From: an uncultured Chloroflexia bacterium
GTDB lineage: Bacteria; Chloroflexota; Anaerolineae; Fen-1058
Direction of reading: 5' to 3'
DNA: 64,000 bases
NCBI GenBank assembly: GCA_963844815.1
Contig: CAWJPR010000003.1
Location: 146,419-210,418 of the forward strand
Every line of letters begins with the position of its first letter. The stretch's first letter is position 1. A program made the translations under genes and the position numbers. The notes under the pieces were generated by a model. That model had not been told where the DNA came from and searched no databases. It saw only the letters and a list, made by a program, of their open reading frames with translations. Below, piece after piece: positions 1 to 61,022 of the stretch.

Positions 1-1525
1 TCTTGTCGCCGGTCTGCGACGTATCGATCAGTTGGAAATTCTGCGGCATTAACGGGCCGACATTGGCAAACCGATCGATGCTCCACTTGTCCAGTGCCAC
101 CACATACTGACCATCGGGTGAAGCCGTGTCGCCCTCCGCCGCAGCGATGTGGCCGATGTTGTATTGCACGGGCAGGGCCTGCACCAGCGTCCACGGTTCT
201 TCGGGATGCTTGTCGGCATACGGGCCGCCCAGCGTCCAGCGCGTCACGGTGCTATCGAGGAACATCGAGGTGTAGGCGTAACCCTTATCGTCAAAGACCG
301 TGTGCAGCGGGCCAAGACCCAGCTCTACCTGTGCTTCTTTCGTGTCATCCAACTTCAACACCGGGACGCCAAAGGCATCCTTCTCAGTTGGACCAGCGGC
401 GATGGCCTTCTGAATCTTGTCGAAAGAATAGATCGTCACATGTGGATCGAGCTTGCCGCCCACCACGATGAACTCGCCGCCAGGAGTCACATCGGAGCCG
501 TGCGGACTCTTGGGTTCTGGTGTGAAGTACAGCAGCTTGTCGCTGATGGCCGTTTCAAGTGGAATGACACTGATGCCGTTGATGTCCTGACCCTTGCCCG
601 CTTTGAACGCGGCTTCGGCGGCTTTCCAGTTGATGATGTGCAGATAGTCGGTGTCATTCTGCGAGGTGCCCGCTTCGTAGGGCGCGCCCGTGCCGTCGGG
701 GCCATTGCCGGTCGCCATTTCGGTGTTGAACGAATTGCAGAAGATCCAGCCCTCGCTCACACCCTTGCCTGCGTCGCACAAATCCTGCCAGTAGGGCGGC
801 AGCTCCATCTGGAACGACTGCGCTTCGTCGATGCGGCCCTTCTCGCGGTCGAACTTCCAGAACGTGATCACGCCGCGATACTTCTCCTTGTATTCGCTCA
901 ACGGAGCGTAGCCCCAGCCAATCGGCGTGGCATACTGCGGGCCTTCGATCACGTACTCGGTGTTGGGCGTCACGAACGAGCCGCCGTGATCGACGATGGC
1001 GTTCGGGTTCTTCACGATCTGCTTCGTCTCGAAGTCGCGCAGATCGATCACGGCCACGCGCGCATTCGCCTTATCGTTGATGAACAGCCACTGGCCGTCG
1101 TACTCGCCGCCGGTTTCGCTGAGGCCGGGGTGGTGCGTGTCGCCCCACTTGATCTCTTGGTCGCCCACGTAACCTTCGGCCAGCACCTTATCGCCGCCGC
1201 CGCCAAGGCCGTAACCCTGCCACGGCTCCGGCGTGAAGACGCCGATCAGTCGCAGGATGCGCATCGAGGGCACACCGACGACCAACACCTGTCCGCTCTG
1301 CCCGCCTGACGCGAACATGATGTACGGATCGAGCTGCCCCGACGGCGTGTAGGTCTTCAGCGCTGCCGTAATATCGGCGGGGGTCAAGCCGCGCGCCGCC
1401 GCCACCGCGGCGGCATCCTGCGGAATGCCGGTGGCCGCTTCGGGCGTGGCCGGGCCGCCGCTGCAGGCTGCCACCAGGCCCGCAATAACCGCCACAACAA
1501 AAATAACCTTCTTCCAGTGTTTCAT
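1..1525 (-). CDS. nosZ: Nitrous-oxide reductase NosZ. It is partial: the C-terminal CuA domain runs off the window start. It carries a Sec/lipoprotein-type signal peptide, which is clade II-like.
   Basis: The reverse-complement translation from the ATG at 1523-1525 gives MKHWKKVIFVVAVIAGLVAACSGG..., with a lipobox. Conserved NosZ blocks follow: SGGQSGQVLVVGVPSMRILRLIGVF, EPWQGYG, DTHHP, and a His-rich CuZ-ligand region. A perfect AAGGAGG Shine-Dalgarno sequence lies 7 nt upstream. The listed plus-strand ORF at 149..1309 is an antisense artefact. Confidence 0.88.
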   Translation of the reverse strand, partial: MKHWKKVIFVVAVIAGLVAACSGGPATPEAATGIPQDAAAVAAARGLTPADITAALKTYTPSGQLDPYIMFASGGQSGQVLVVGVPSMRILRLIGVFTPEPWQGYGLGGGGDKVLAEGYVGDQEIKWGDTHHPGLSETGGEYDGQWLFINDKANARVAVIDLRDFETKQIVKNPNAIVDHGGSFVTPNTEYVIEGPQYATPIGWGYAPLSEYKEKYRGVITFWKFDREKGRIDEAQSFQMELPPYWQDLCDAGKGVSEGWIFCNSFNTEMATGNGPDGTGAPYEAGTSQNDTDYLHIINWKAAEAAFKAGKGQDINGISVIPLETAISDKLLYFTPEPKSPHGSDVTPGGEFIVVGGKLDPHVTIYSFDKIQKAIAAGPTEKDAFGVPVLKLDDTKEAQVELGLGPLHTVFDDKGYAYTSMFLDSTVTRWTLGGPYADKHPEEPWTLVQALPVQYNIGHIAAAEGDTASPDGQYVVALDKWSIDRFANVGPLMPQNFQLIDTSQTGDK

Positions 1526-1561
1526 CTTCTTCCTCCTTGGAGAAACGAATGTGGGTTAACG

Positions 1562-26429: not shown

Positions 26430-28592
26430 TCAATTCAACTGCCGTTTCACTTCAATCACATTCGGCAGCCGCTCGATGCGATCCATCAACTTGGACAACT
26501 GCGCTGTGCCGGCAATTTCCAGCGTGGCGACAAAGGTGGCCAGGTTCTTGTTGGTCGTTACGTGCACGCTGCTCATGCTGACGTTTTCACCGGCCACCAC
26601 AGTCGCTACGTCGCGCAGCAGGCCGTCGCGATCGTAAGCCGAAATTTTGATCGTCACCGGATACGTGCGCTGGCTGGTGCCCCAGGAAACTTCGATCAAC
26701 CGCTCGGATTCGGAACTATTCAACATGTTGACGCAGTTGGCGTGATGAATCGTCACGCCGCGCCCGCGGGTTACAAAGCCCACAATCGGATCGCCCGGCA
26801 CCGGCTTGCAGCACTTCGCCAGTTGGGTCAGCATGCCGCCCGTGCCGCGCACCGCCAGCCCGGCCACTTCCGGCCTGGACACCGGCACCATGGGCACCGG
26901 CTCCTCCGGCGGCGGATTCGCCTTGCGATCGGCTTCGATGACTTTGCTGACGATCGCCTGCGAACTGATGTCACCGCCGCCGATCTTCTCAAAAAAGTCG
27001 TCCACCTTGTCGAAGCCGAACAGCTTCGCGACGGAATCGTGCGACATGGCGTCCAGGCTCAGGCGGTGCAGTTCGCGTTCCACCACATCCCGACCCTGCG
27101 CGATGTTCTGCTCGCGATCCTGCTTCTTGAACCACTGTTTGATCTTGGTGCGCGCGCGCTGCGTCTTGACGTAGCCCAGATTGGGATTGAGCCAGTCGCG
27201 GCTGGGACCGCCGCGTTTGGCCGTGATGATCTCCACGCGATCGCCGGTCTTCAAGGGATAATCAAGCGACACCAGCGCGCCGTTCACGCGCGCACCCCGG
27301 CAGCGATCGCCGATGTCGGTGTGGATGTGATAGGCAAAGTCAATCGGCGTGCTGCCGGTGGGCATATCCACCAGCTTGCCCTTGGGCGTGAACACGTAGA
27401 CGCGATCCTGAAAGACGTCGGAACGCAGCGAATCGACGAACTCCCGCGCATCGCCCACGTCGTGCCGCCAGTCCATCAGCGAGCGCAGCCACGCAATCTT
27501 CTCTTCGTATCTCGGATCGCGCTTGCCGCCTTCCTTGTAACGCCAGTGCGCGGCAATGCCCAGCTCGGCGCTTTCGTGCATCTCGCGCGTGCGAATCTGC
27601 ACTTCCAGCGTCCGGCCCTCGTCGGCCACCACCGCGGTGTGCAGGCTCTGATACAGGTTGTCTTTGGGATTGGCGATGTAATCGTCGAACTCGCCGCTGA
27701 TGGGCCGCCACATCGAGTGCACGATGCCCAGCGCCGCGTAACACTGGGGCATCGTGTCCACCAGCACGCGAATGGCCCGCACGTCATATACCTGCTCGAA
27801 CGAGCCTTTGCGTTCCATCTTCTTCCAGATGCTGTAAATGTGTTTGGGACGTCCCGTGATTTCGGCGTTGATGCCCTCGGCCTTCAGGCGTTCCTGCAGC
27901 TTGAGGCTGACTCGTCGAAGATACTCTTCCCGATCGGGCCGCTTCTCGTCGATGAGCTGCGCGATCTCTTTATATTTGTCAGGATACTGGTGGCGGAAGC
28001 CCAGGTCTTCCAGTTCCCACTTCATCTGCCAGATGCCCAACCGATTGGCCAGCGGCGCGAAGAGTTCCAGCGTTTCCTGCGCGATGCGCTGGCGGCGCTC
28101 TTCAGGCAGCACGCCCAGCGTGCGCATGTTGTGCAGCCGATCGGCCAGCTTGATCAAGATCACGCGTGGATCGTCCACCATCGCCAGGAACATCTTGCGC
28201 AGCGATTCCAGTTCGCGCTCGTCATACGATCGGGCCGCCTGTGAATCCAGATGATCGAATTGGCCCAGCTTGGTCACGCCCTCCACCAGGCTCAGCACTT
28301 CTTTCCCGAATTCCTTTTCCATTTGTTCGCGGGTGTAGGCGGTGTCTTCCAGCGTATCGTGCAGCAAGCCCGCGGCGATGGTGGGCGCATCCAGGCCGAG
28401 GCCGGTCAGGATGTTGGCGACAGCCAGGCAGTGCTGCACGTACGGCTCGCCCGAGGTGCGTTTCTGGCCTTCGTGCGCCTGGTCGGCCACCTGGTAGGCG
28501 CGCAGCACCAGATCATGACCGGCATTGCTGCGCAGCGCGGGAATGTCTTGTTCGAGCAGGGCCTCGATGTTGAGGGTGGGATACTTTGGCAT
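26430..28592 (-). CDS. rel: Bifunctional (p)ppGpp synthetase/hydrolase, RelA/SpoT family.
   Basis: It has an HD domain (HDTLEDT), a RelA/SpoT synthetase domain, TGS and ACT. The start was set at MPKYPTLNIE. Confidence 0.88.
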   Translation of the reverse strand: MPKYPTLNIEALLEQDIPALRSNAGHDLVLRAYQVADQAHEGQKRTSGEPYVQHCLAVANILTGLGLDAPTIAAGLLHDTLEDTAYTREQMEKEFGKEVLSLVEGVTKLGQFDHLDSQAARSYDERELESLRKMFLAMVDDPRVILIKLADRLHNMRTLGVLPEERRQRIAQETLELFAPLANRLGIWQMKWELEDLGFRHQYPDKYKEIAQLIDEKRPDREEYLRRVSLKLQERLKAEGINAEITGRPKHIYSIWKKMERKGSFEQVYDVRAIRVLVDTMPQCYAALGIVHSMWRPISGEFDDYIANPKDNLYQSLHTAVVADEGRTLEVQIRTREMHESAELGIAAHWRYKEGGKRDPRYEEKIAWLRSLMDWRHDVGDAREFVDSLRSDVFQDRVYVFTPKGKLVDMPTGSTPIDFAYHIHTDIGDRCRGARVNGALVSLDYPLKTGDRVEIITAKRGGPSRDWLNPNLGYVKTQRARTKIKQWFKKQDREQNIAQGRDVVERELHRLSLDAMSHDSVAKLFGFDKVDDFFEKIGGGDISSQAIVSKVIEADRKANPPPEEPVPMVPVSRPEVAGLAVRGTGGMLTQLAKCCKPVPGDPIVGFVTRGRGVTIHHANCVNMLNSSESERLIEVSWGTSQRTYPVTIKISAYDRDGLLRDVATVVAGENVSMSSVHVTTNKNLATFVATLEIAGTAQLSKLMDRIERLPNVIEVKRQLN

Positions 28593-28678
28593 GGTACGAA
28601 TTGTAGCACAGGCGTCGGGCTGCGTACTATAATTGAGCCACGAGATTGGCAATCGCGATCATACTCAGGAATAAAAAC

Positions 28679-31519
28679 ATGACAACCGATCAACCCGCCA
28701 CAACCTTTGAACCACCGCGCGCGGCGGCTTCGGCCGGCGGCGGGGTGCCGCCGTATCGCCAGACTGTCGCCACGGTCGTTAGCCCGATTATCACAGCGAT
28801 GCGGCACGCGGGCTGACCTCGGCCGCCGCCAGAGACGCACTGGCGCATGCGGCCCCAACGAGCTGCCCACGATTCCACCCGAGCCAGCCTGGAAACGATT
28901 CCTGGCGCAGTTCCAAAATCCACTCACCATGCTGCTCATCGTCGCCACGGTGATTTCATTCGTGGCGTGGGTCATCGAAGAAGAGGGCGGGTTGCCCTAT
29001 GAAGCGCTGACCATCCTCGCCATCGTCATCCTCAATGCGGTGCTGGGTTACATGCAGGAGAATCGCGCCGAGCAGGCCGTGGCGGCGTTGCAGGCGATGG
29101 CCGCGCCGCTGCGCGCGTGCTGCGTGATGGCCAGCAGCAGCAGATTCCCACGCGCGAAGTGGTGCCCGGCGACATCTTGCTGATTGAAGAGGGCGACACG
29201 TTGGCCGCCGATGGGCGCGTCATCGAATCGATCGCGCTGCGGGTGGCCGAAGCCGCGTTGACGGGTGAGAGCACGTCGGCGTCCAAGGACAGCGAGCCCA
29301 TCGTCGACGAGGTGGGCATCGGCGATCAGCAGAACATGATCTTCAGCGGCACGGCGGTGACCTCGGGGCGCGGGCGAGCGATCGTGACGCACACCGGGCC
29401 GGATACGCAGATCGGCAACATTGCGGGCACCTTGCAGCAGCAACAAGAAGAACCCACGCCGCTGCAAAAAGAACTCGATCGCGTGGGCAAGCTGCTCGGG
29501 CGGATTGTGATCGCGATCGCCATCATCATGGGCCTGACGTTGCTCATCGTTAATCGCCAATCCCGATCGCTGGATCAGCTCGTCGATATTTTGCTGCTGT
29601 CGGTGTCGCTGGCCGTGGCCGCCGTGCCGGAAGGCTTGACGGCGATCACGACCATCGTGCTGTCGTTGGGCATGTCGCGCATGGCCAAGCGCAATGTCAT
29701 CGTCCGTAAGTTGAGTGCCGTGGAGACGCTGGGCTCCACAACGGTGATCTGCACCGATAAGACCGGCACGCTGACCAAGAATGAGATGACCGTGCGCACG
29801 GTGGTGGTGCCGCTGGGCCGCGTGGAACTTACGGGCGGCGGTTACGATCCTGTCGGTGAAGTGCAGTATCAGGGTCAGACGTTGGCCGAAGGTGATCTGC
29901 TGCGGCAAGTCAGCGGACACTGCGTTTCGCCGCGCTGGCGAATAATGCGGCACTTCTGCAGCAGGATGGACGCTGGATGGTGCAGGGTGATCCGACCGAA
30001 GGCGCGCTGGTGGTGGCAGCGCGCAAAGCGGGCATGACCGAAGAAGATTTGTCCGAGCGTTACACGCGCGTGGGCGAAGTGCCGTTCTCGTCGGAACGCA
30101 AGATGATGAGCACTGCGTTGGAGGATGCCGAGCGCGAAGACATGATTGCCGTGGCCTCCAAGGGCGCGCCCGATGTGCTGCTGGCCCGCTGCACCCATGA
30201 GCGGACAGGCGGTAAAGAACATCTGCTCACGCCGCACGCCGCGCCGAAATTCAGGCCGAGATCGATCGGTTGGCCGAGGACGCGCTGCGCACGATCGGCG
30301 TGGCGTACCGCTGCTGCATAAAGATGCGGTCAGCGATACCATCAGCGAGGATGCCGAACGAGAATTAGTGTACCTGGGCGTGGTCGGTATGATTGATCCG
30401 CCGCGTGCGGAGGCCGAGCGAGGCGGTAGAGGTGGCGCGCCGCGCAGGGGATGCGCTCCATCATGATCACGGGCGATCATCCCACGACGGCGGCGGCCAT
30501 CGCCGCCGAACTGGGCATCATGGCCAAAGGACAACGCGCGGTCACGGGTATGAATTGCAGAAGACGGACGATCAACGTCTGCGTAAATTGGTCAAGGAGA
30601 CCGCGGTGTTTGCGCGGGTCGCGCCAGAGCACAAGCTGCGCATCGTGCGCGCCCTGAAAGCCGATGGGGACATCGCGGCGATGACGGGTGACGGGGTCAA
30701 TGACGCGCCCGCGCTGAAAGCGGCAGACATCGGCGTGGCGATGGGCATCACCGGCACGGACGTATCCAAGGGCGCAGCCGATATGATCTTGACCGATGAT
30801 AACTTCGCTTCGATCGTGGCCGCGGTGGAAGAGGGCCGCTCGATCTTTGCCAATATCCAGAAGTTCCTGCGCTATCTGCTGTCGTCCAACATCGGTGAAG
30901 TGCTGGTGATGTTTTTCGGCGTGGTGCTGGCCAACACGATCGGCTTACTGCCCGAAGAAGGCTCATCCATCATCGTGCCCTTGTTGGCGACACAGATTTT
31001 GTGGATCAACTTGCTCACCGATTCCGGCCCCGCGCTGGCGTTGGGCGTGGAACCGGCCGATCCCCATGTGATGAAGAAGCCCCCGCGCGATCCGCGCACC
31101 CGTGTGATTACGCGCCGATGTGGTTCGACATCTTCTTCGTCGGCGTCATCATGATGATCGGCACATTAGGCGTCATGGACTGGGCGTTGCCCGCGGGCTT
31201 GATTCCGGGCGGCACGGGCGATATGAAGTATGCACAGACACTGGCTTTTACGACCCTGGTGTTCTTTCAATTATTCAACGCGCTGAATGCTCGCTCGGAT
31301 GAAGACAGCGCGTTCAAGGGATTGTTCAGCAACAAGTGGTTGTGGCTGGCGCTGTTCATCTCGGTGCTGCTGCAAATCGCCGTGATTTACCTGCCATTCC
31401 TGCAAACGCCGTTCAATACCGTGCCGCTCAGCGCGCAGGACTGGCTGCTGTGCATCCTGGTGGGCAGCACCGTAATGTGGCTGCGTGAACTGGTGAAGGT
31501 GTTTCAGCGGCGGCGCTGA
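28679..31519 (+). pseudogene. Ca2+/cation-transporting P-type ATPase (type II) disrupted by at least 10 single-base frameshifts.
   Basis: The conserved blocks lie in changing frames: [74 protein letters not shown], and the C-terminal TM region. Frame switches fall near 28815, 28850, 29107, 29907, 30235, 30310, 30415, 30445, 30545 and 31105. There are no large deletions. Confidence 0.8.
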
Positions 31520-31662
31520 CCGGGGCCGGTTGTTCAAGGGTCTGCCGCTGTGGTAGGATTGCGGGGGAAATGACTAATGACCACATAACAAAGAGCAATG
31601 GTAATGAACCATAGCGGCCAACCGTTGTATTTCATTGGTACCCATCAGTTAACACGACAACT

Positions 31663-32217
31663 ATGCGCGTCATTTCTGGCGCGGCCAAAGGCCGCAACCT
31701 CCAATCAGTTCCCGGCGATTCTACCCGCCCCATCACCGACAGGGTGAAGGAGGCGCTGTTCAACATCTTCGGCGCGGATATCGTCGAGGCCCGCTTTCTC
31801 GATCTGTTCGGCGGCACGGGCGGCGTGGGCATCGAGGCGCTCAGCCGCGGGGCAGCGCACGCCGTCTTCGTCGAGAAGAACCGCAAGGCGCAGGAAACCA
31901 TCAAGGCAAATCTGCTGCTCACCCGGTTGAGCGAACGCGCCGAGATCGTGCGCGGCGATGCGTTTGCCTATTTGCGGAATGTGCCGCAGCCGTTCCACTA
32001 CATCTACATCGCGCCGCCGCAGTATCAGCGCCTGTGGATCGACGCGCTGACGCTGCTCGACGAGCAGCCCGGCTGGCTGGCCGACGACGGCGAAATCATC
32101 GCGCAGATTCATCCCAAGGAATACGAAGCCGCGCCGCTGGAGCATTTCGAGGAGATCGAGCAGCGCCAGTACGGCAGCACCCTGCTGGTGTTTTACGAGC
32201 ACAAGCAGGCCGCATGA
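31663..32217 (+). CDS. rsmD: 16S rRNA (guanine966-N2)-methyltransferase RsmD.
   Basis: The product reads MRVISGAAKGRNLQSVPGDSTRPITDRVKEALFNI...LDLFGGTGGVGIEALSRGA. Confidence 0.82.
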   Translation: MRVISGAAKGRNLQSVPGDSTRPITDRVKEALFNIFGADIVEARFLDLFGGTGGVGIEALSRGAAHAVFVEKNRKAQETIKANLLLTRLSERAEIVRGDAFAYLRNVPQPFHYIYIAPPQYQRLWIDALTLLDEQPGWLADDGEIIAQIHPKEYEAAPLEHFEEIEQRQYGSTLLVFYEHKQAA

Positions 32218-32298: not shown

Positions 32299-33240
32299 TT
32301 GCGTCTTGCATCCCGCAGCTTGCATCCTGCTTGTGGTGAGTCGTCTGTGCTCGCTGCCTGTGCGCCGGCCAGCGCCGCCTCATCACCTCTGCCGACATTG
32401 GCCGCACCGTGGCTGGCGACGCGCACGCCGCTTGCGACGATCACGCCTGACCTCACGGCGACTCTGCCCGCGCCGCAACCGTCGCCCACCTTGATGCCGA
32501 CTGTCGCGCCGATCACGGCCGAGGGATGGCAGCCCATCCGATTGGGCGTCTCTGTCCGCGAGATGATGGCTGACCCGATCGGAAAGACCGGGCGCGTGGA
32601 TGTCGTCAGGATCGATCCGTCGCTAGTTGATTTTCACGTGACCTATCAACCGGAGTCGCCGCTGACCGTGCGCGAGTGGTACAGCGCCACGCAGGCCCTG
32701 GTCGTGATCAACAGCAGCTTCTTTGACAAGGCACACAACGCGGTCGGACAGCTGACCAGCGACGGTCAGAGCGGCGGGCAGTCGCATCAACGCATGGAAG
32801 GCGCGTTCTATCTCACCGGCGTCGGCGCGGCCGTGTGGCCGCTGCGCGGCTGGACCAAACCGGCGGGCCTGCAGATCATCGAATCGATCGAATCATTTCC
32901 GATGCTGTTACTGCCGGGCGGAATCGTCAATCCTGAAATCCCCGACGATGCGCGTACCGCGCGGCGCACGGTGATTGCCGCGGATCGATCGGGCAACTTG
33001 CTGTTCGTCGCCACGCCCTCGAGCTCGTTTACGCTGCATGGCCTGGCGGTGTGGCTCGCCAACAGCGATCTCGACATCGACACGGCGCTGAACTTTGACG
33101 GCGGCAGTTCGTCGGGCATTGCCGCGTGGACGCCGACCCACGTGTGGGGCTTTGATTCGGTGGGGCGCGTGCCGGCGGTGGTCACAGTGGACGTGAAAGT
33201 GCTGGGCACGGTCGGGCCGGGCGGTGGCGAATGGCCGTAA
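32299..33240 (+). CDS. Phosphodiester glycosidase family (DUF2233/NAGPA-like) secreted protein.
   Basis: The family patterns VVINSSFFD...FPMLLLPGG...LNFDGGSSSG are present. The true start or signal peptide may lie upstream in another frame. Confidence 0.55.
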   Translation: MRLASRSLHPACGESSVLAACAPASAASSPLPTLAAPWLATRTPLATITPDLTATLPAPQPSPTLMPTVAPITAEGWQPIRLGVSVREMMADPIGKTGRVDVVRIDPSLVDFHVTYQPESPLTVREWYSATQALVVINSSFFDKAHNAVGQLTSDGQSGGQSHQRMEGAFYLTGVGAAVWPLRGWTKPAGLQIIESIESFPMLLLPGGIVNPEIPDDARTARRTVIAADRSGNLLFVATPSSSFTLHGLAVWLANSDLDIDTALNFDGGSSSGIAAWTPTHVWGFDSVGRVPAVVTVDVKVLGTVGPGGGEWP

Positions 33241-34099
33241 ACCCAGCCTGGCTCACACGCCGCGCCCGCGTGGTGCGCAGACGCACCGCGCGAATCACCA
33301 GCCGGCTGCTCCTGGCGATTAGCCTGCTGGTCTCGTGCGGCTGCTCGATCGCTCAACGCACACCGACGGTGGTCATGCCACCGCCGAGCCTACCCCGCCC
33401 CACGGCTACTTCCGCGCCGCGTGATACAGGTTGGCAGTCGATCGGGGCAGGTGTGGAATATCGCGAACTCCAGATCGAGCAGGGGGATCGCTCTACGCTT
33501 CGCTGCGGATCGATCCGGCGCAGACTCGTCTGCGCGTGCTCTATGATCCCGATCGGCCCCGGCGCGTCAGCGCATGGCTGTCCGAATCCAGGGCGCTCGT
33601 CGCCGTCAACGGCAACTTCTTCGATCCGCAGAACCATGCGCTGGGTCTGGTGATTCAGGACGGGCAGAGGCGCGACGGCGTGGTCTATCAAGGCTTCGGC
33701 GGCATGCTGGCGGTGAGCGGCGACGAGGTGCGCGTGCGCTGGAACGTGCAGGAGCCGTATAACGGCGAGCCATTGACTTACGCGCTGCAGAATTTTCCGA
33801 TGCTGGTGCTGCCCGGCGGCTCGCCGAACCTGGAGATCGACGACAACGGGCGGGCTGCACCGCGCACCGCCGTGGCGCAAGATCGATCGGGGCGCCTCAT
33901 CTTCGTCGTGAGTCCCCTGCCAGCCTTCACGCTGACGGAATTTGGCCAGTGGCTAGCGGCGAGCGATCTTGATCTGGAGGCGGCGCTGAATCTGGATGGC
34001 GGCACATCGTCGGGACTGGTGCTGCGATCGGGCAACCGGAACCTCGGCACGGATTCGTGGGTGGAAGTGCCGAATGTGATTGTGGCGGAGAAACGTTGA
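33231..34099 (+). CDS. Phosphodiester glycosidase family lipoprotein, a tandem paralog, with a frameshift near 33475.
   Basis: A lipoprotein signal (LLLAISLLVSCGCS) is followed by VAVNGNFFD...FPMLVLPGG...LNLDGGTSSG. Frame changes occur at a ggggg run. Confidence 0.55.
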
Positions 34100-34883: not shown

Positions 34884-35233
34884 GGCAGTCCAAGCGCAGC
34901 CAGAATGGTCTCAACTTCATCCAGGAAGTGCGGCAATTCTGTGGGAAGTCGACCTTCTGCGCTGGTGTCGTGTGCCTCGGGCGAGGCACTCGTGTGCTGA
35001 TGCCACACGCCGGCGACTTGATCGCGAGCGTATACACGCTGGTTGTTATGGATCAGAGCAAAGTTCGTCGTGTCAAAGCGGTCGTTGCGATAGACTTGTA
35101 CAAAGAGATCGGGCGCGATATGCAGCCGGGCTTTTATGAGATTGGCGCTTTGATCGAGAATCTCCACGCGCCGCAGGTAGGCCCGGCGCGCCGCTTCGTT
35201 TTGCAAGGCTGCCGCCAACTGCGCGACGTTCAT
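34880..35233 (-). CDS. Hypothetical small protein. It is the downstream member of an overlapping pair, possibly a toxin-like component.
   Basis: A 117-aa product. A 4-nt overlap joins it to the upstream ORF and the methyltransferase start. Confidence 0.4.
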   Translation of the reverse strand: MNVAQLAAALQNEAARRAYLRRVEILDQSANLIKARLHIAPDLFVQVYRNDRFDTTNFALIHNNQRVYARDQVAGVWHQHTSASPEAHDTSAEGRLPTELPHFLDEVETILAALGLP

Positions 35234-35565
35234 GCCGCTTCGCTCAGCTGCTTCAGGCGTTCGATTTCCTCTGCCATGTCACTGACGCCCGTGACCGCCA
35301 GCTCCCAGTCAAAGTAATCTTGTTCCATTTCACCAGAGATATCTTCGCCCGCGACGGCTGCGCGTACCGCGTCGAATCCCTGCGGGTACTTCGCTTCGAA
35401 CTGGCGCGTGGCCGTCTGATATCTGATGAGATTCTTTTGAGCGCGTTCTAGTAGCAACTCGGCCATTGCCTGATCGAGGCTCAGGTTGGGAAATAGGCGG
35501 CGCGCGCTAGCTTCAACGGTCAGATACGCTGCGGCAGTTTCCTTTATTGGCTTTGGCTCGCTCAT
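35230..35565 (-). CDS. Hypothetical small acidic protein. It is the upstream member of the overlapping pair, possibly antitoxin-like.
   Basis: A 111-aa product. Its stop overlaps the next start by 4 nt. Confidence 0.4.
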   Translation of the reverse strand: MSEPKPIKETAAAYLTVEASARRLFPNLSLDQAMAELLLERAQKNLIRYQTATRQFEAKYPQGFDAVRAAVAGEDISGEMEQDYFDWELAVTGVSDMAEEIERLKQLSEAA

Positions 35566-35612
35566 GACTGCCTCCCGCTAAAACCAATTTCTACGAGAGA
35601 GTATAGCACATC

Positions 35613-36520
35613 CTATCGCAGATACCGGCTAGCGACTTCGGCTACCTGACGGCGCACCGGATCGGCGCGCCACTGCCCCAAGACTGGCTTCACCACTTCC
35701 GGTCTGGCCTTGCCTAACTTCACCGTTGCCGAAGCGACTGCGCGCCACACGAAGCGGCGCTCATCCGCGGCCAGATCGGTCAGGAGTTCCATACCTTGTT
35801 CGGCGTACTTGCGCCCGCCCACGGCACTCCAGACCATGGCTACGTTCCAGCGCTCGAATTCGTTCTGGCTGCGGGCGTGTTTGCGCAGCCACTTCAAGGT
35901 GAGGTCGGGGTAGTTCTTCAGCAGCGCCAGGCTGATGGCAAACGGGCCGAGATTGACGCGCACGTAACGCGACTCGTCGCGCATCAACGGATCGAGCAAC
36001 CTCAGCAGCCTGGCGCCGCGCTGGGGATGATTCGCCTTAGCCGCTTCCATCGCGGCGATGACCACCGCCCGCCGCACATTTTCCGATTTGTGCTGTGACC
36101 ATGCCTGCATCACCGGATACACTTCCGCAAAGTGCTGATCGAGAATGCGCCCGGCGCAGACTGCCCGCGTACTCCCGCACGGCCCAGTTGTCGCTGCCGG
36201 CGTGGCGTTGAAGCAGTTGCAGAGCAGCCTGCGGTTTCTGATCGTACACATCGGACAACATGACCAGCCCCAACTGATGCCCGTTGTAATCGCGTCGGGT
36301 CAGCAGGCGCTTGACCCAACCGAATAAATTGCCAGGAGCTTGAAGCGCGCGATCGGATCAGCCGGGCGGCCAGCATGACGTCGGCGCCTTTGGCCGTGCC
36401 GGGATCGGCGCCCACGGCAAAAGCGCCCGATCCGCGTTTGGCTAAAGCCGCGACGACGGCGTCGAGGTCCTCACGTTCAACGGCGGCAGTGAGTTCGCGT
36501 TCGAAGGCGTCCATGGTCAA
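35613..36520 (-). CDS. DNA alkylation repair (AlkC/AlkD-like HEAT) protein, frameshifted in its N-terminal third.
   Basis: The C-terminal 212 aa has the DNA_alkylation HEAT pattern. The N-terminus MTMDAFERELTAAV... and a WAVREYA segment lie in other frames across about 36150-36330. Confidence 0.55.
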
Positions 36521-38504: not shown

Positions 38505-39908
<1,404 letters not shown>

Positions 39909-40951: not shown

Positions 40952-42110
40952 TTACGCTTCCCGCTCAAAAATATGCGTCACCACGTTCGAGCCGCTGCCG
41001 CCGATGTTCTGCGTCATGCCGAGGGTTGCCTCTTTGACCTGATTCTTGCCCGCCATGCCGCGCAGCTGCACCAGCGCTTCGACGATCTGGTACATCCCTG
41101 TCGCGCCGACTGGATGTCCGCGCGCCTTCAATCCGCCCATCGTGCAGATCGGCAGCCTGCCACCGATGCTGATCTCGCCGTCGAGGCCAAGGCGCACGCC
41201 CTGGCCGGGTTCGGCAAAGCCGCTCGCTTCCAGGCTGGCCACCGCCGTAATCGAAAAGGCATCGTGCACTTCAAAGAAATCAATGTCGGCGGGCGTCAAC
41301 TTCGCTTGCTCGAACGCTTTCTTCGCTGAGGCTGCCACTGCTTCCAATCCCAGCAAGTTGTGCCGATCGTGCAGCGCCAAACTGTCGGTGGCTACCGCGC
41401 TGCCGCGCACCTTGATCTGGAATGGGCTGAATTGCCGCGCAATCTCGGTCGGAACCAGCACGACCGCCGCTGCGCCATCGCACACTGGCGAGCAGTCCAG
41501 CAAGCTTGATCGGATCCGCGATCATGCGGGCTTTGTTGAACTGCTCCCGGGTCAGCTCATAGCGCAGCATGGCGTTGGGGTTGTTGACGGCGTTGTGATG
41601 CGAATTGATCGGGAACGGCGCAAAGTCTTCGTGCTGGACGCCGTACTCGTGCATGTAACGCTGCATCAGGCGCGCATTGATGGCGACGAAGGTATCTCCC
41701 ATCGCCGATTCCCAGTCTGCATCCGACGCGCTGACCAGCCCTTCGGTGATTTCTTCGCCCGGATGGTCGAGCATCTTTTCCACGCCGCACACCAGGGCGA
41801 AGTTGACTTGTCCGCTCGCCACGGCCAGATAGCCTTCCCGAAAAGCCACGCCGCCCGACGAGCAAGCTGCTTCGACCTTCACGGCTTCCACGCCCGTTAA
41901 GCCGACCTGATCGGCGGCGAGGCTGGCCAGCGAATCTTGTCCGGCCAGCGTACTCGACAGCATGTTGCCGACATATACACTATCGATTTGTTCGACCTGG
42001 GAGTCGCGGATCGCCGCCAGCATGGCTTCGACGGCCAGGATGTAAATGGGCTTTTCCCACAGATCGCCCACGGGCACTTGCCCGATCCCGATGATACTTA
42101 CCTCACGCAT
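40952..42110 (-). CDS. Thiolase-family (SCP-x-type / ketoacyl-CoA thiolase-like) protein, with a 1-nt insertion frameshift near 41515.
   Basis: The N-terminal part (VEAACSSGGVAF) and C-terminal part (CDGAAAVVL...GHPVGATG) lie in adjacent frames. Removing one g in aagcttGctggactgc restores ...DPIKLLDCSPVCDG. Confidence 0.78.
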
Positions 42111-42197
42111 GTTCTTATCCTCGAAGGCCGCGCCCCACGGCGCGGATGGTTGTCGTGCGATTCTACACCTGTTTCACTATCGCACCACGTCACTGCT

Positions 42198-44156: not shown

Positions 44157-44247
44157 TTCGCGGCAAACCTTCATCAGGTGTTAAGCGCGGCTTAAGGCAG
44201 TGCAGGGACAATTGCTGGAATCCGGATTCCCGTAAGGCAGGCAAACA

Positions 44248-45529
44248 ATGAAAACGAATCGCATACTGATTGGCGTTCTGGCGTTCATCTTGGTGGTGGC
44301 GATTGCCACCGGCGGCTACATGCTGGGCTATGCCAGCGGGCACACGGCTCAACCGGCGGCAGCCGCTGTGCCGCCTGAAACAAAACCGCCTGTATTATCC
44401 CCGGCGCCGGCCGATACGCCTGCAAAATCGGCGGTCAGTGGCGACAATGATGCGCAATCGTCTGCGCCGCAAGATCAATCGCTGAAGACGTTTTGGGAAG
44501 CGTATAACCTTCTGCAAAAGGAATACTATGGCGATGATCTCCCCAGCGGAAAGGATCTGGAGTACGATGCCATTCGCGGCTTGATTTTCGGGCTGGAAGA
44601 TCAATTCACCTCGTTTATTTCGCCGGAGGCGGCCAAGCTGATCGAAGAAGACGCCACCGGCTCGTTCAGCGGCATCGGGGCGTACGTGCAGTTAAACAAG
44701 CAGCGTGCTCTGCAGCTCACCAAGATATTCCCGGACTCGCCTGCGGAGAAAGCTGGACTGAAAGCGGGTGACCTCATCACCGAGGTGGATGGCAAATCGC
44801 TCGTGGGCGATGACCTGAATGCCCAGGTCGCCAGAGTGCGCGGTCCTGAGGGATCCACCGCGACGTTCACGATCGTGCGCGAGGGCGAAGACCAGCCGTT
44901 CAAGGTGGACATCACCCGCGCCAAGATCGCGATCAAATTGGTCGAGTCGAAGCTGCTGGACAACAACGTGGCTTACGTGTCGCTGAGCAAGTTTGATTCA
45001 TCCACGACAGCCGAGCAGCTGCAGGCGGCAGTTCAGGATGTGCTGGCGAAGAATCCCAAGGGGCTGATCGTCGACCTGCGCGACAATCCGGGCGGGTTCC
45101 TCGATCAGTCGGTTCAGGTGGCCGACATGTTCTTGAAGGACGGCGTGGTGTTATACGAGCGCTCGAAGAACGGCGACGAGCAAGTGTTTCGATCAGATGA
45201 TCGCGGCGTGGCGCAGGACGTGCCGCTGGTGGTGCTGGTCAATGGCGGTTCGGCCAGCGCGGCTGAAATCGTAGCGGGCGCCATTCAGGATCGCGGGCGC
45301 GGCGTGCTGATTGGTGAGACGACCTTTGGCAAGGGATCCGTGCAGCAGATCAATCACCTGTCCGACAGTTCGCAGCCTGCGGGTGACCATCGCGCACTGG
45401 TTTACGCCTAACAACCGGGGCATCCATGGACAAGGCATCGAGCCGGATATCACCGTGGAGCGCGGTGATGATCCCAAGGCGGATCCGCAGCTCGATCGGG
45501 CGGTGGAGTACATCCTGACCGGGAAGTAA
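44248..45529 (+). CDS. Second S41 C-terminal processing peptidase paralog, with a frameshift near 45365.
   Basis: It has a TM helix, a PDZ domain and the core VLVNGGSASAAEIVAGAIQDRGRGVLIGETTFGKGSVQ. The C-terminal tail (RVTIAHWFTPNNRGIHGQGIEPDITVE) lies in the adjacent frame. Confidence 0.8.
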
Positions 45530-45606: not shown

Positions 45607-45656
45607 TCGGGTGTATACTTAGGCCGTAGTTATGCCGCACTGCATCATAAATTACC

Positions 45657-46128
45657 ATGAACAAACCGGCGAGTGACGTCAAGGTCATTGCGACTAATCG
45701 AAAAGCCACCCACGACTATTCCATCGAAGATCGCTTCGAGGCGGGCATTGCCTTGCTGGGCACGGAGATCAAATCGATCCGGGCGGGGCAGGCTAATCTG
45801 CGCGAAGGGTACGTGCAGCCGCGCGGCAGCGAGCTGTTTCTGGTGAATGTGCATATCTCGCCGTACGATCCGGCCGGACGAGAGGGACACGATCCGCTGC
45901 GGCCGCGCAAACTGTTGTTGCACCGCAAGGAAATCGCGCGCATCCTGACCAAGCTGAAGCGAGAAGGGCTACACGTTGATTCCGCTGCGGATGTACCTGA
46001 AGAATGGCCGGGCCAAAGTAGAGATTGCGCTGGCGCGCGGCAAGCGGCAGTACGACAAGCGCCAGAGCATTGCCGCGCGCGATGCCGCCCGCCAGATCGA
46101 CCGCACGCTGAAAGGACAGCAAGAATGA
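45657..46128 (+). CDS. smpB: SsrA-binding protein SmpB, with a 1-nt insertion frameshift near 45968.
   Basis: The product reads [44 protein letters not shown]...[19 protein letters not shown]. The canonical C-terminus ([39 protein letters not shown]...) is in the +1 frame after an extra g in a ggg run. Confidence 0.85.
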
Positions 46129-46973
46129 CCGTGGCAGAGCGGATCTTGACGCCGGACAACACGCGGTTTATCGCGCCCGATGGTTCCTTGTTGAACTCGC
46201 TGGCGACGATCAACCAGTTGCCGGATGACGTCCGTGACCAGGTCTATCGGACGCTCCTGGACGATGATCTGCTCGATCGGTACGCCATCGATCGGCAGAC
46301 GCTGCGCAATCCGCGCGGCGAGCACGTGGTGACTTTTGACACTTCGCCTAACATCGGGCTGCTGGAGCTGCGTGTGTGGCGGCAGTTGACCGATCGGGAT
46401 CCGCTGCTGTACATGCAGTTGGCCGACACGACCAACAATCAGATCGTCATCCTCTTGTTCATCACCAGCAACCCCGAGGCGCCGCGCTTTTCCGTGGATC
46501 GCGATTGGGGCGGCGAGCCGACCAAGTTCGGTACCCTGTCACGCAACATTGAGGCGGAAGTGGCTGCCATGCAAGCGGGACTCTCACCGGGACAGGTGCG
46601 GCAGGGGCTGCGCATGGCGCGCAAGATGATGCCCAACTTCGAGCGCTTTATTGCGCGGCTGGGCCATGAGCTGTTCCTCATGGAGCCGCTGGCCTATCAT
46701 TCAGCCATTTTGTTTGAAAGCTTTGGTTGTGCTTACAGCCAGGGGCGGCGGCGTATGGAGCGCACTCATCAGGGATTCCAGCCGGGCGGAGAATATTTCG
46801 TGCGGCTCGATGATTCCACGCCCTTCCGCCGGCCCGGCGCCGAGAAAACCGTGCGCGGCCGCTCGTGGGCCATTCACGATGGTATTCTGGGCGAGCCCTA
46901 CACTGATTACCACATGTACAAGCACGTCGGCAAGCAGGCGGACGTGTGCACGTTTCCGCAGTACGTGTGGTAG
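46125..46973 (+). CDS. Conserved hypothetical protein, translationally coupled to smpB by an ATGA overlap.
   Basis: A 282-aa product beginning [21 protein letters not shown]... with good codon usage. No recognisable family. Confidence 0.55.
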
Positions 46974-56352: not shown

Positions 56353-56686
56353 CGGGCGGAACCAATCGGTAGATGGTTGGGCGCCAAAATCCGTGATGGC
56401 TGAAGGGTTCAGCCAGTTTTGTGTCAGCGAGCGATTGAGCAACTTGCCTCCAGAATCCCACTCCTGCCTTGCGACTATTCTCGCACAAGTCGGGCAGATA
56501 TCCAAATGAACAAAAACCGGGCAGTTGGCCGGTTCCAGCCGATTTTCTAACCGTTTTGCTATGGACGTTATCATGGTGTAATGGGATACTGGACGAACCG
56601 GGATATAATCAGTGCGTCCGCCTGGGGCGTAAGCCATGGTGTCATTCGCTCCAGTACCCAGGCGGTGGAGACTTCCGGGTGAAAGC

Positions 56687-59600
56687 ATGAAGTGTCCGCG
56701 CTGTGGTTTCGACAATCCGGCCGGCTTTGCTTTCTGCGGCCAGTGCGGCAGCCAACTCGCGGCGTCTGAAGATCAACTGACGCCCGCCGAGTTGGATCAG
56801 CTGCGCCGGTATCTGCCATCGTCACTGAGCGACGCCTGGCGCTTTGATCTGGCTGAGCCTCCGCCCCAGCTGCTTAAGCAATCCACCGATCATCTCTATC
56901 GCCTCGTCGACACGACCGCGACTTATCTGCCCGCCCACATTGTCGATCGCATCCTGCGTGATCCGGTGCCGGGCCAGATCGGCGGCCAGTTCGTGGAAGG
57001 CAGTCTGTTGTTCGCCGACATCAGCGGCTTCACGGCGATGTCCGAGCGCTTGAGCCGCCTGGGGCGCGAAGGCGCCGAAGAGATCACCGGCATTGTGAAT
57101 CGCTACTTCAGTGCCATGTTAACGCTCCTGCGTGAATACGACGGCTATCTGGTGAAATTTGGCGGTGACGCGCTGCTGGGTTTGTTCCTGGAGCCCTATG
57201 GCGCTCAGCGGGCCGTGCAGTCTGCCGTGCGCATGCAAGAGGCGATGCGTGAGTTCACGGAATTGCGCACCTCGCAGGGTGTGTTTCTGCTGCGCATGAA
57301 GATTGGTCTGCACCAAGGGCGTTTCTTCTCCGCCCAGCTGGGCAATGCCGAAAACATGGAGTACATGCTGTTCGGTCCGGATGTCAATGCGGCGGCGCTG
57401 GCGGAGGGCGTGGCTGCCGCCGGAGAAGTGCTCGTCGATCGGGCTACGCACGCTGCGCTGAGGATGCCGTGCCAGGTCAGGCCTGCGCAGCATGATGATC
57501 GCTTCTTCCACGTCGAGTCTATCGATACCCGGCGCGATTTCCAGCGCGCGCCAACGATCATGACCATGCTGCCGGCGCCCACCTTGAAGGGCTTGCGCCG
57601 CGCCGTGAAAGTGCTCGACGCTCTGACGCCCTATCTCCCCGCCGGATTGCTGGCGCGCCTGGCGAACAGTCCGCAAGGCATGGTGCAAGAGGGTGAGCAT
57701 CGGCTGGTGGCGGTGACGTTTGCCAACGTGCACGGCCTGGGCGAGCTGGTCGATCGGTTGGGGCCGGGCCGCGAGGAAGAGATCGTCAACGCGCTGAATC
57801 ATTACTTCGTCGGCATGGACCAGGCGGTGCACGGGCTGGGCGGCGTGATCAACAAGCTGGATCTGGCCGAGCAGGGCGACAAGCTGCTGGCTTTCTTTGG
57901 CGCGCCGGTGGCGCATGAAGACGATGCCGAGCGCGCGGTGCGCGCCGCGTTGAACATGCAAGCCGCCCTGCGCGAGATGAGCGGCGCTGTGCCTGAACAG
58001 GCCGGCCTGCCTGATCTCAAGCTGACGCAGCAAGTGGGGATCAGTTGTGGCTACGTTTTTGCAGGCTACGTGGGCACGGCGTGGCGGCGCGAGTACACGG
58101 TGATGGGCGATGAGGTCAATCTGGCGGCCCGCTTGATGTCGGCAGCGGAGCCGGGCAGCATTATCGTCAGCGGCGCAGCGCAGCGCAAACTGCAGGCGCT
58201 GTTCAACCTCACCCCGCGCGGCGCAGTGCGCGTCAAAGGCAAGAGCGATCCGGTTGCCATTTTTCAGGTGGCCGGACTGCGCGCCACGGCCGGATCGCTG
58301 CGCGGGCTGGAGGGCTTGCATTCTGAATTGGTGGGGCGCGACGCCGAATGGAAACAACTCTCGACTGCCATGCAGCACTTGCGGTCGGGACGCGGGCAGA
58401 TCGTCTCGATCATCGGCGAAGCGGGCCTGGGGAAGTCTCGCCTGGCAGCCGAATTGCGCGCGCAGACTGCCAGCGGCCGATTCAGCCCCACCGCGATCGA
58501 GTGTGCGCTGGTTCGAGGGGCGCTGCGTCTCGTTTTACGAGTCGGCGAGCTACCGGCCGATGCAGGAACTCCTTGGCCGGATAATCGACCTGCAATCCGA
58601 TGACGGCATTGCGGAGGCCTGGAGCAAGTTGCGCACGGCAGTGGACGCCTGGCCTTCCGCTGAGAACGCCGCGGCCAGTCTGCCGTATCTTGCCCACTTT
58701 CTGGGCTTGCCGTTGTCCGACGCGATGCAAGCGAAGGTGCGTTACCTCAGCGCCGAGGCCCTGCAGCGCCGCACCTTCATCGCCATCCGCACGCTGATTG
58801 AGATGCAGGCCAAGACTGCGCCCGTGGTCTTCATGCTGGACGACATCCACTGGATGGATCAGGCCTCGCTCGATCTGTTGGAGTATCTGCTGCCAGTGAC
58901 GGATGCGGCGCCGGTCATGTGGCTGCTGCTGTATCGCGCCGAGCGCACGAAGAGCTGCTGGCAAATTCGCGAGAAGGCCGCGCGTGATTTTCCGCACTGC
59001 GCCACCGAGATCGCGCTCGAGCGGTTGTCGCCAGACGAGACCTGGCAACTGCTGTCCAATTTGATCCGCTTGACTCGATGGCCGTTGAGCGTGCAGGAAT
59101 TGATCTTGCAGCGCGTCGAGGGCAATCCCCTCTATCTGGAAGAGGTGCTGCGCACCTTCATGGAGAACGGCGCTGTGGTCCGTGACGAGCGCGGCGCGTG
59201 GCAAGTGCGCGACGACGTCGCCGCGATCACAGTGCCGGACACGCTGCAGGGCGTGATGATGGCGCGTCTCGATCGGCTGGAGGAACCGCCGCGCCAGACC
59301 GCGCAGGTCGCGGCGGTGGTGGGGCGCGCGTTCCCTTATGAGGTGTTGTCCCACGTCATCGACACCGAATACATTGAGCTGAAGGCGTGCCTCGCGCGTC
59401 TGCAGCAGAACGAAATCGTGCGCGAGGATCAACGCCTGCCCGATTTGATTTACGCATTCCAGCATACGCTGATGCAGGAAGTGTGTTACGAGAGCTTGCT
59501 GGCGCGCACGCGCCGCGAGTATCACCGTAAGATCGCGCAATTCCTGGAGGTCAACCGTTCGGATCCGCGCAGCGCCGCCGGGGATGTGGCGCTGCTGGCG

Positions 59601-61022
59601 CATCATGCTTATGCCGGGCAGGACTGGCCGCGCGCTCTGATCTATCAGATTGAAGCGGGTCAACATGCCCAACGGCTGTTCGCCAACCGCGCGGCAATCG
59701 ATCACTTCAACAAAGCCCTCCACTGTGCCGATCAATTGCCGCCGGACGATACGGCCGCGCAGCGCCTGGCGATTCAGACGGCGCTGGGCGAGCTGCTCAC
59801 CACCACCGGCCAATATGAGCCAGCGCTGGAGCATTTGAATACGGCCCGCACTCTAGCGCTGGCGTTGGGGGATTCGAATGCGGCAGCGCGCGTGGACCGC
59901 TGGCTGGCGCGGCTCTACGAGCTGCGCGGCGAGTATCCTGCGGCAATTGATTGGGTGTGGCAGGGGCTGAGAGCTCTGGCAGGCCGCGAGACTGCCGATG
60001 CCGCCGAGATGCTGATCACCGCCGGGCTGATCCATACCCGGCAGGGGGACTACGATAGCGCTCTGGATATGTGCCAGGAAGCGCTGCGCATTGCCCAACG
60101 CCTGGATGAGGTCGCCGTCCTCGCCCGCGCCTACAATTTGCGGGGACACATTACGCGGTTGTCGGGCCAGAGCGCCAAGGCAATTGAGGATTTTGAGAGG
60201 GGTCTGGAGCTCTATGAGCGCGCCGGCGATCTGCATGGCCAGGCCATGTCACACAATTTGATTGCCAATGTCTATTTCGATACCGGATACTGGCAACAGG
60301 CCAATGAACGGTATCGCCAGGCGCGCAGCGCTTTCGATCTGCTGGGCGATGTCTACAACCGTGCTTTTGCCGATAACAATCTGGGCGGCATCGCGTTGAA
60401 TCAAGGCCGCCTCGACGAAGCGCTGGACGACTACCACAGCGCGCTCGAGGCGCTCGCGCGCATCGGCGGATCGGAATATGTGCTGGGCGTGCTGCACAAC
60501 AATCTGGGCGCCACCTGCGTCCGGCGCGGGGAGATCGAAGCGGGGCGCGATCACCTGTACACCAGCCTGCATTACTTCGAGCGCACCCAATCGCGTGATT
60601 TCCTGCCGGAACTCCACCGGCATCTGGCCGAAGCTGCTATGGCCGCGGGCGAATACGCTGAAGCAGAGACGCAGGCCCAACAAGCGCTGGCGGTGGCGCG
60701 GGAATTGACGATGCGCAATGAAGAAGGCACTGCACAGCGCGTGCTGGGGCAGGTGCGCGCTGCGCAGCAGCAATGGCCGGAAGCCGAGCAGTTGTTGAAC
60801 GACAGTCTGTACGCGCTGGAAGAAGCCCGCGACACCTATGAAGCGGCCCGCACGCGCCTGGCGCTGGCGCACATTCGCTGCGCACAGGGACCTTGTGCTG
60901 GAGCGCTGCCGCTGATCGATCAGTGTGTGGAGGTTTTTACTCGCTTGAACGCGCAACTCGATTTGGCTGCTGCGCAGACTTTGCGCGAGCAGGCTCAAGA
61001 GAAAAATAGGAGGCCATCATGA
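56687..61022 (+). CDS. Large multidomain signalling protein: Zn-ribbon, 2x class III adenylate/guanylate cyclase, STAND/AAA (AAA_16) NTPase and TPR repeats. It has a frameshift near 58490.
   Basis: The domains are visible in order. The Zn-ribbon reads MKCPRCGFDNPAGFAFCGQCG. The two CYC domains include FADISGFTAMSE and VTFANVHG...MGDEVNLAARL. The P-loop is GEAGLGKSRL. Then comes VRWFEGRCVSFYESASYRP, in the shifted frame. Extensive C-terminal TPRs follow. The listed ORFs 56636..58603 and 58254..61022 are one gene. Confidence 0.82.

Follow-up and report, generated by a model that had tools for sequence, protein, structure and literature searches.

The P2-type ATPase gene that is interrupted by ten frameshifts in the 64,000-nucleotide stretch of DNA analysed here (the window) is very probably a normal, selectively maintained gene, its frameshifts being consensus errors of the assembly that are concentrated where a strain-variable cassette had thin read support. 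The case is chiefly a caution on data quality: an annotation that took the sequence at face value would call a pseudogene here, and might score it as decay of the gene or as loss of Ca2+ export in an uncultured Anaerolineae-like organism. Most likely, a pump gene that decays purely by indels is not a real feature of this DNA.

The frame-corrected ATPase and its indel sites

The ATPase coding region starts with an ATG at 28679 and stops with a TGA at 31517-31519 on the plus strand. Along it, the frame changes in the order 2, 1, 0, 2, 1, 0, 2, 0, 1, 0, 2 (codon start modulo 3), and in the sequence as assembled the initial frame ends after 45 codons. To place the indels, the DNA was aligned with the intact orthologues of L083 (91% nucleotide identity), L087 (90%) and L084 (87%), which resolved exactly ten sites: seven of -1, two of +1 and one of +2. 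The gene and the indel sites are listed here, with the evidence for each.

28679-31519, plus strand: P2-type (Ca2+-type) P-type ATPase coding region (stitched frames, NCBIfam models and solved relatives)
28778-28797, plus strand: indel site 1, where the orthologues are 2 nt shorter, explained by one +2 near 28782 or by a pair of +1 near 28778 and 28797 (nucleotide alignment)
28847-28848, plus strand: indel site 2, -1 nt (nucleotide alignment)
29107-29108, plus strand: indel site 3, -1 nt (frameshift-aware and nucleotide alignments)
29912-29913, plus strand: indel site 4, -1 nt, one base where the orthologues have AA or GG (both alignments)
30235-30236, plus strand: indel site 5, -1 nt (both alignments)
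30310-30311, plus strand: indel site 6, -1 nt (both alignments)
30419, plus strand: indel site 7, +1 nt, an additional C between two GAG-like codons (both alignments)
30446-30450, plus strand: indel site 8, +1 nt at an AGGGG run, the sole site adjoining a 4-nt homopolymer (both alignments)
30550-30551, plus strand: indel site 9, -1 nt (both alignments)
31116-31117, plus strand: indel site 10, -1 nt (both alignments)

The first-pass annotation of this region had counted at least ten frame switches between 28679 and 31519, and both the number and the coordinates were correct. Once the frames were corrected, the gene measured 947 codons, compared with 946-947 in the orthologues, and the VLARLSQDAARGL reading at indel site 1 recovered the consensus length of the Cation_ATPase_N domain. 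Frameshift-aware alignment of a relative of 947 aa (P0121) to the DNA covered 937 codons at 72% identity and crossed no in-frame stop. Likewise, the 940 codons read of the stitched ATPase contained no in-frame stop, and the nucleotide alignment with the three intact orthologues revealed neither an indel of a multiple of 3 nt nor a deletion of more than 2 nt, all of the indels being of 1-2 nt. These results are in agreement with the earlier description of a gene free of in-frame stops and of deletions.

The homopolymer slippage that had been put forward for the indels is not supported by their positions: within the ATPase, all three 5-nt runs escaped, and only one of the twelve 4-nt runs (GGGG at 30446) was hit. 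The possibility that the sites have a sequence motif in common, for example one of the methylation type, also found no support; the contexts are GC-rich, several of them following GCGC or CGCC, with no consistent motif. The other frameshift sites of the window differ in context from those of the ATPase.

The stitched protein matched Listeria LMCA1 (lmo0841) over its full length (E 2e-181) and also SPCA1. These two proteins are its best solved relatives; residues 26-947 align to LMCA1/SPCA1 and residues 29-947 to TIGR01522. The NCBIfam models of PMR1-, SERCA- and PMCA-type Ca2+-ATPases all matched it. Scores were below the cut-off for the PMR1-type model (712 versus 798) and the SERCA-type model (658 versus 703), and just above it for the PMCA-type model (522 versus 507), but in this last case the match was in two stretches. 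The diagnostic P-type ATPase blocks, which had been described as fully conserved, were indeed all kept: the stitched protein carries the phosphorylation motif DKTGT (as ICTDKTGTLT, in a column that is invariant in 116 homologues), the A-domain TGES (as LTGES), the hinge motif and PEGL, and the TM5 N/E and TM6 N/T/D ion-site residues could be read from the sequence. Orthologues that are 89-92% identical carry all five Pfam domains (Cation_ATPase_N, E1-E2_ATPase, Cation_ATPase, Hydrolase and Cation_ATPase_C). In a contig scan with the stitched protein, the best among the matches listed was 71% identical. The family models and the LMCA1/SPCA1 match support the assignment made in the first-pass annotation, that of a Ca2+-type P-type ATPase at family level, with Ca2+ as the predicted substrate.

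Selection on the corrected gene

The ATPase is under purifying selection, and its substitution patterns contain no sign of relaxed selection. Pairwise dN/dS between the window gene and L083, L084 and L087 was 0.09-0.14, compared with 0.08-0.12 among these intact genes. When the corrected protein was set against 116 full-length homologues, none of 232 invariant columns and none of 313 columns conserved at 98% or more was violated. It deviated at two of the 374 columns conserved at 95% or more, the median of the intact homologues being three. Substitutions private to the window gene amounted to 19 in 2239 four-way columns, 13 of them synonymous and 6 nonsynonymous (P=2e-4 versus neutrality), a ratio that resembles that of the intact relatives. 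Simulations showed that 10 unconstrained substitutions produce a stop or a conserved-column change with probability 0.95, and 20 do so in 99.7% of cases. Since neither a stop nor a conserved-column change is present, the simulations indicate that fewer than ~10 free substitutions accompany the 10 indels, so that indels are at least as numerous as free substitutions.

These figures bear on the alternative that the gene is a true, very recent pseudogene. In that case the clade would be losing an accessory ATPase, and this strain would keep a dead copy with ten real small indels. Spontaneous bacterial mutation spectra contain several substitutions per indel. A dead copy is difficult to reconcile with a gene that has no stop, no conserved-column change, a dN/dS of ~0.1 and private changes at 13:6, and in which ~10 free substitutions at most stand beside 10-11 indels. 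Its long homopolymers are free of indels, and no deletion exceeds 2 nt, both of which also speak against decay. In addition, true prokaryotic mutations are mostly substitutions, and long-read errors mostly indels (PMC12424758).

Frameshifts elsewhere in the window and in related assemblies

The window was surveyed for frameshifts with a codon-usage frame HMM, with Pfam split-domain tests and by comparison with relatives, either through tblastn or by aligning the DNA. Eight frameshifts were confirmed in the 61 kb outside the ATPase (0.13/kb), compared with ten in its 2.84 kb (3.5/kb; Poisson P(>=10) ~1e-11), and the ten ATPase indels fall within 2.4 kb. Thus, the indel density of the ATPase is far above that of the rest of the window, as had been claimed, but the remainder is not clean. 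At least seven other genes of the contig are split by small indels, which are single-base where a reference resolves them.

33494-33505: NAGPA2 (second NAGPA paralogue), split by a frameshift
~36160 and ~36341: DNA-alkylation-repair gene, split by two frameshifts
~38895: enolase frameshift, Enolase_C profile positions 2-179 and 170-295 on its two sides
~41504: thiolase, split by a frameshift
~45375: S41 peptidase frameshift, profile positions 1-137 and 135-165
~45965: SmpB frameshift, profile positions 1-96 and 92-142
~58505: adenylate-cyclase/AAA_16/TPR protein, split by a frameshift

Comparison with related assemblies showed that NAGPA2 is intact in L088, a contig of the same species with a short-read-style (k141_) name. 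The partial DNA-alkylation-repair gene of L088 does not have the additional base that splits the window's copy at 36160, and L084 has a full, unbroken copy of this gene. Scattered split genes (G6PD, FtsX, transaldolase, relA, adenosine kinase and PRTase) were found in the Flye-style 'contig_N' relatives L001, L002 and L083, and no split genes in the short-read contigs L084-L086 and L088. The ATPase itself is intact in L083-L087. L083 shows the opposite of the window, with a split relA and an unbroken ATPase, which indicates that breakage tracks the assembly and not the lineage.

An ATPase indel density 27 times the window background, next to perfect relA and rsmD neighbours, is what a recently killed gene could look like; against it, the housekeeping genes enolase and SmpB are broken by the same small indel type in the same contig. 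Because the ATPase retains the pattern of purifying selection and housekeeping genes of the contig carry the same class of small indel, we consider a recent pseudogene unlikely. The first-pass annotation had left the choice between a pseudogene under relaxed selection and an assembly or coverage problem; the second is the one favoured here, and the first is disfavoured. More generally, indels without substitutional decay, housekeeping genes with the same defect and intact orthologues in short-read assemblies make up a signature that distinguishes consensus error from decay without recourse to reads.

In its residual errors, the contig resembles a metagenome assembly made from long reads only (Nanopore-type), a technology that we infer. 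Nanopore-only assemblies need ~40x coverage to reach near-finished quality (PMC9262707). At modest coverage, Nanopore-only metagenome assemblies keep indel errors and their genes are fragmented (PMC9262707, PMC12313526, PMC12007338), and long-read errors are known to cause frameshifts that pseudogenize genes (PMC12007338).

A strain-variable cassette between relA and rsmD

The position of the error cluster was compared with the gene order and the ancestry of the locus, in which the following features were delimited.

26433-28592, minus strand: relA/spoT, 720 aa, intact, left flank, divergent from the ATPase (alignments to L084 and L088)
28612-31543, unstranded: strain-variable segment (ATPase cassette), absent from six of the six informative closest relatives (alignments to relatives)
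28900-31600, unstranded: discordant-ancestry block, where L083 and not L084 is the nearer relative (sliding identity)
31663-32217, plus strand: rsmD-like methyltransferase, 184 aa, full length, intact, right flank (comparison with relatives)

Both flanking genes proved to be intact, as the earlier reading had stated. The window relA aligns over its full 720 aa to the relA of L084, and its alignment with the same-species contig L088 has zero gaps in 2316 nt, with identities of 96.9% at the nucleotide and 98.8% at the amino acid level. The comparison with orthologous loci that the first-pass annotation had suggested was run, and it separated two groups. The more distant relatives L083-L087 carry the ATPase in the same position between relA and rsmD. 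All six informative closest relatives, in contrast, are devoid of it, and in the cassette-less relatives relA and rsmD lie ~110-180 nt apart. In L088, ~47 nt replace the window positions 28612-31543, and the gap between rsmD and relA is ~130 nt. The same arrangement, without the cassette, was found in a JGI contig (3300075153) whose relA is 96% identical in amino acids. The cassette is also absent from four metagenome contigs (L091, L099, L100 and L107; 85-97% identity) that were found by means of an 18-mer downstream of the ATPase.

The cassette spans ~2.9 kb and contains all ten indel sites. Sliding identity revealed that the window is always nearer to L084 than to L083 from 24.9 to 28.9 kb and from 31.6 to 34.0 kb, and nearer to L083 in the block between. 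The indels were also compared with the points at which a two-parent mosaic would switch; the string of informative sites was interleaved and the association was unconvincing. The biology itself is ordinary: close relatives differ in whether they carry an accessory P2-type ATPase cassette between relA and rsmD.

These observations suggest how the cluster could arise from consensus error. The residual errors of a long-read-type assembly would be small, mostly single-base indels, at the ~0.13/kb found across the window. If the sampled population were mixed for the cassette, as its presence/absence polymorphism would imply, the flanks would be covered by reads of every strain and the cassette by those of a minority, possibly by one or a few reads. 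In such a segment the polisher may leave near-raw-read indels, at a deletion-biased rate of ~0.35%. The error cluster would be local because the closest relatives do not have the cassette and because its ancestry is distinct from that of the flanks. Error clusters in metagenome contigs can mark strain-variable segments.

Three observations weigh against the explanation by consensus error. A local error density 27 times the background is a large excess. At single-read quality, ~10 mismatches would be expected, 2-3 of them at conserved columns, and none was observed (P ~0.06). Finally, the closest relatives evidently do without the gene, and real decay is thereby more probable a priori; the absence of the cassette from six close relatives, and hence its dispensability in the clade, also speaks for a recent pseudogene.

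Other origins of the frameshifts and comparison with known systems

The discordant ancestry of the cassette led to a second alternative, that of a chimeric assembly, in which the organism would have no ATPase and a read or reads of a related organism carrying the cassette would have been joined between relA and rsmD at near single-read quality. This reading, which would still make the frameshifts an artefact, accommodates a cassette body that resembles L083/L087 between flanks that both resemble L084/L088, and the finding of the cassette in none of the six informative close relatives. It also accommodates the 19 private substitutions of the window, compared with 76-133 in the other three taxa, a number that places the gene near an internal node or makes it a mosaic. 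However, neither the upstream spacer nor the 5'-terminal ~200 nt of the gene is L083-like, and the flanks are 97% L088-like up to the breakpoints. Moreover, the flanks of the known donor-like relatives are only 81-88% identical, a divergence across which a long-read assembler would probably make no join. We regard a chimera as very unlikely.

Also very unlikely is the case in which the indels are real: in a clade that is shedding this accessory Ca2+-ATPase, one strain would carry a copy that it had lately acquired from a related lineage by import or recombination. Many small indels outside homopolymers, arising in one burst and only within the recombined tract, would then have killed this copy; error-prone synthesis during recombination is one conceivable source. 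If true, this would be gene death by indels only, without substitutional decay. Programmed recoding, or any other biological read-through of the frameshifts, is effectively refuted: no support for it was found, the ten shifts go in both directions and have no slippery motif in common, and in the orthologues a single frame is enough to encode this protein.

Consensus error in a strain-variable segment is thus the explanation that we retain for an intact pump gene, and the protein itself has close counterparts among the P2-type Ca2+-ATPases. It resembles LMCA1, the SPCA1/PMR1-type pumps and SERCA in its full-length match, its motifs and its TM5/TM6 ion-site residues. By our own reading, it differs from SERCA in TM8, where a Q stands in place of the site-I glutamate, as in single-site pumps. 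Compared with the PMR1-type and SERCA-type equivalogs, it scores under both curated cut-offs.

Indel-laden pseudogenes of reductive genomes, such as that of Mycobacterium leprae, also gain stops and larger deletions, and their conserved sites undergo nonsynonymous change. The ATPase is like them in having multiple frameshifts in a recognisable gene and in being lost in sister lineages; unlike them, it has no stops, no conserved-site changes and no larger deletions. It is closer to the genes fragmented by long-read (Nanopore-type) errors that are recognised in IDEEL or Kastor-type tests, in which small indels split conserved genes, including essential ones. As in those systems, the orthologues here are intact in short-read assemblies and other genes are split in the 'contig_N' relatives. 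The difference from ordinary, uniform low-coverage error, which does not predict such a pattern, is that the errors here form a dense cluster that coincides with a strain-variable segment.

Frame breaks in other genes of the window

Genes of the window carrying frame breaks or indels (window coordinates, strand, gene, position of the change)
33231-34099, plus strand, second NAGPA paralogue, -8/+1 change at 33494-33505
35619-36514, minus strand, DNA-alkylation-repair gene, two +1 insertions relative to L084 at ~36160 and ~36341
38505-39908, minus strand, frameshifted enolase, junction at ~38895
40955-42173, minus strand, split thiolase, junction at ~41504
44236-45526, plus strand, split PDZ/S41 C-terminal processing peptidase, junction at ~45375
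45651-46125, plus strand, split SmpB, junction at ~45965
56633-61019, plus strand, large split zinc-ribbon/adenylate-cyclase/AAA_16/TPR regulator, junction at ~58505
61245-64000, plus strand, NIDO-domain ORF, probable frame change at ~62084

The first enolase ORF matched Enolase_N and positions 2-179 of the Enolase_C profile, and the remainder of the protein (Enolase_C 170-295) was found in the ORF at 38543-39001. Because enolase is an essential glycolytic gene, its disruption is a strong sign that the contig carries assembly error. The N and C domains of the thiolase likewise lie in separate ORFs (41283-42173 and 40955-41521, respectively), and both the S41 peptidase (Peptidase_S41 profile 1-137 and 135-165) and SmpB (Pfam profile 1-96 and 92-142) are divided between two frames. 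The 440-codon ORF at 45651-46970 consists of the SmpB N-terminus continuing out of frame into the following gene. Towards the window end, the break in the large regulator falls inside AAA_16 (profile 1-75 and 50-166). The coding signal of the NIDO-domain ORF ends at ~62083, 390 nt ahead of the stop of this first ORF, and another frame takes over to the window end; we regard this as a probable additional frameshift.

As for the smaller changes, the +1 at ~36160 in the DNA-alkylation-repair gene was present relative to L088, a same-species short-read-style contig, as well as to L084, a more distant short-read-style relative. Relative to L088, the first NAGPA gene carries an unpolarised -1 at 32347, within its N-terminal region; this is a possible further frameshift.

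In L089, a JGI contig, a HIT-family gene at 1317-1821 is broken into three small ORFs and adjoins a relA 97.8% identical to that of the window. Fragmented genes are therefore also found in at least one further public contig from the clade.

Gene content among relatives

Two small genes of 117 and 111 aa (34890-35595, minus strand) were found in the window, L084 and the JGI 3300075153 contig and were missing from L088 and L092; this pair is a second presence/absence difference between close relatives. An additional 346-aa gene without a Pfam hit lies between the ATPase and rsmD in L084 (12906-13946), L085 and L086, which are more distant relatives with the ATPase, and is missing in the window and L083. 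The ORF that runs off the window start (2-1555, minus strand) encodes a nitrous-oxide-reductase-type propeller repeat (nos_propeller) and has no relation to the ATPase finding.

Edges of the ATPase cassette

Upstream of rsmD, the string GCCGCTGTGGTAGGATTG (31544-31561) resembles an extended -10 promoter element (TGnTAGGAT). Relatives without the ATPase keep this string exactly in their relA-rsmD spacer, and it also matches ~18 apparently unrelated metagenome contigs. A short string lies on either side of the cassette itself, GATTGGCAATC at 28647-28657 and GGTTGTTCAAGG at 31526-31537. The two look like imperfect direct repeats, are similar to a single TTGGTCAA at the L088 junction, and may mark the breakpoints of a deletion or insertion.
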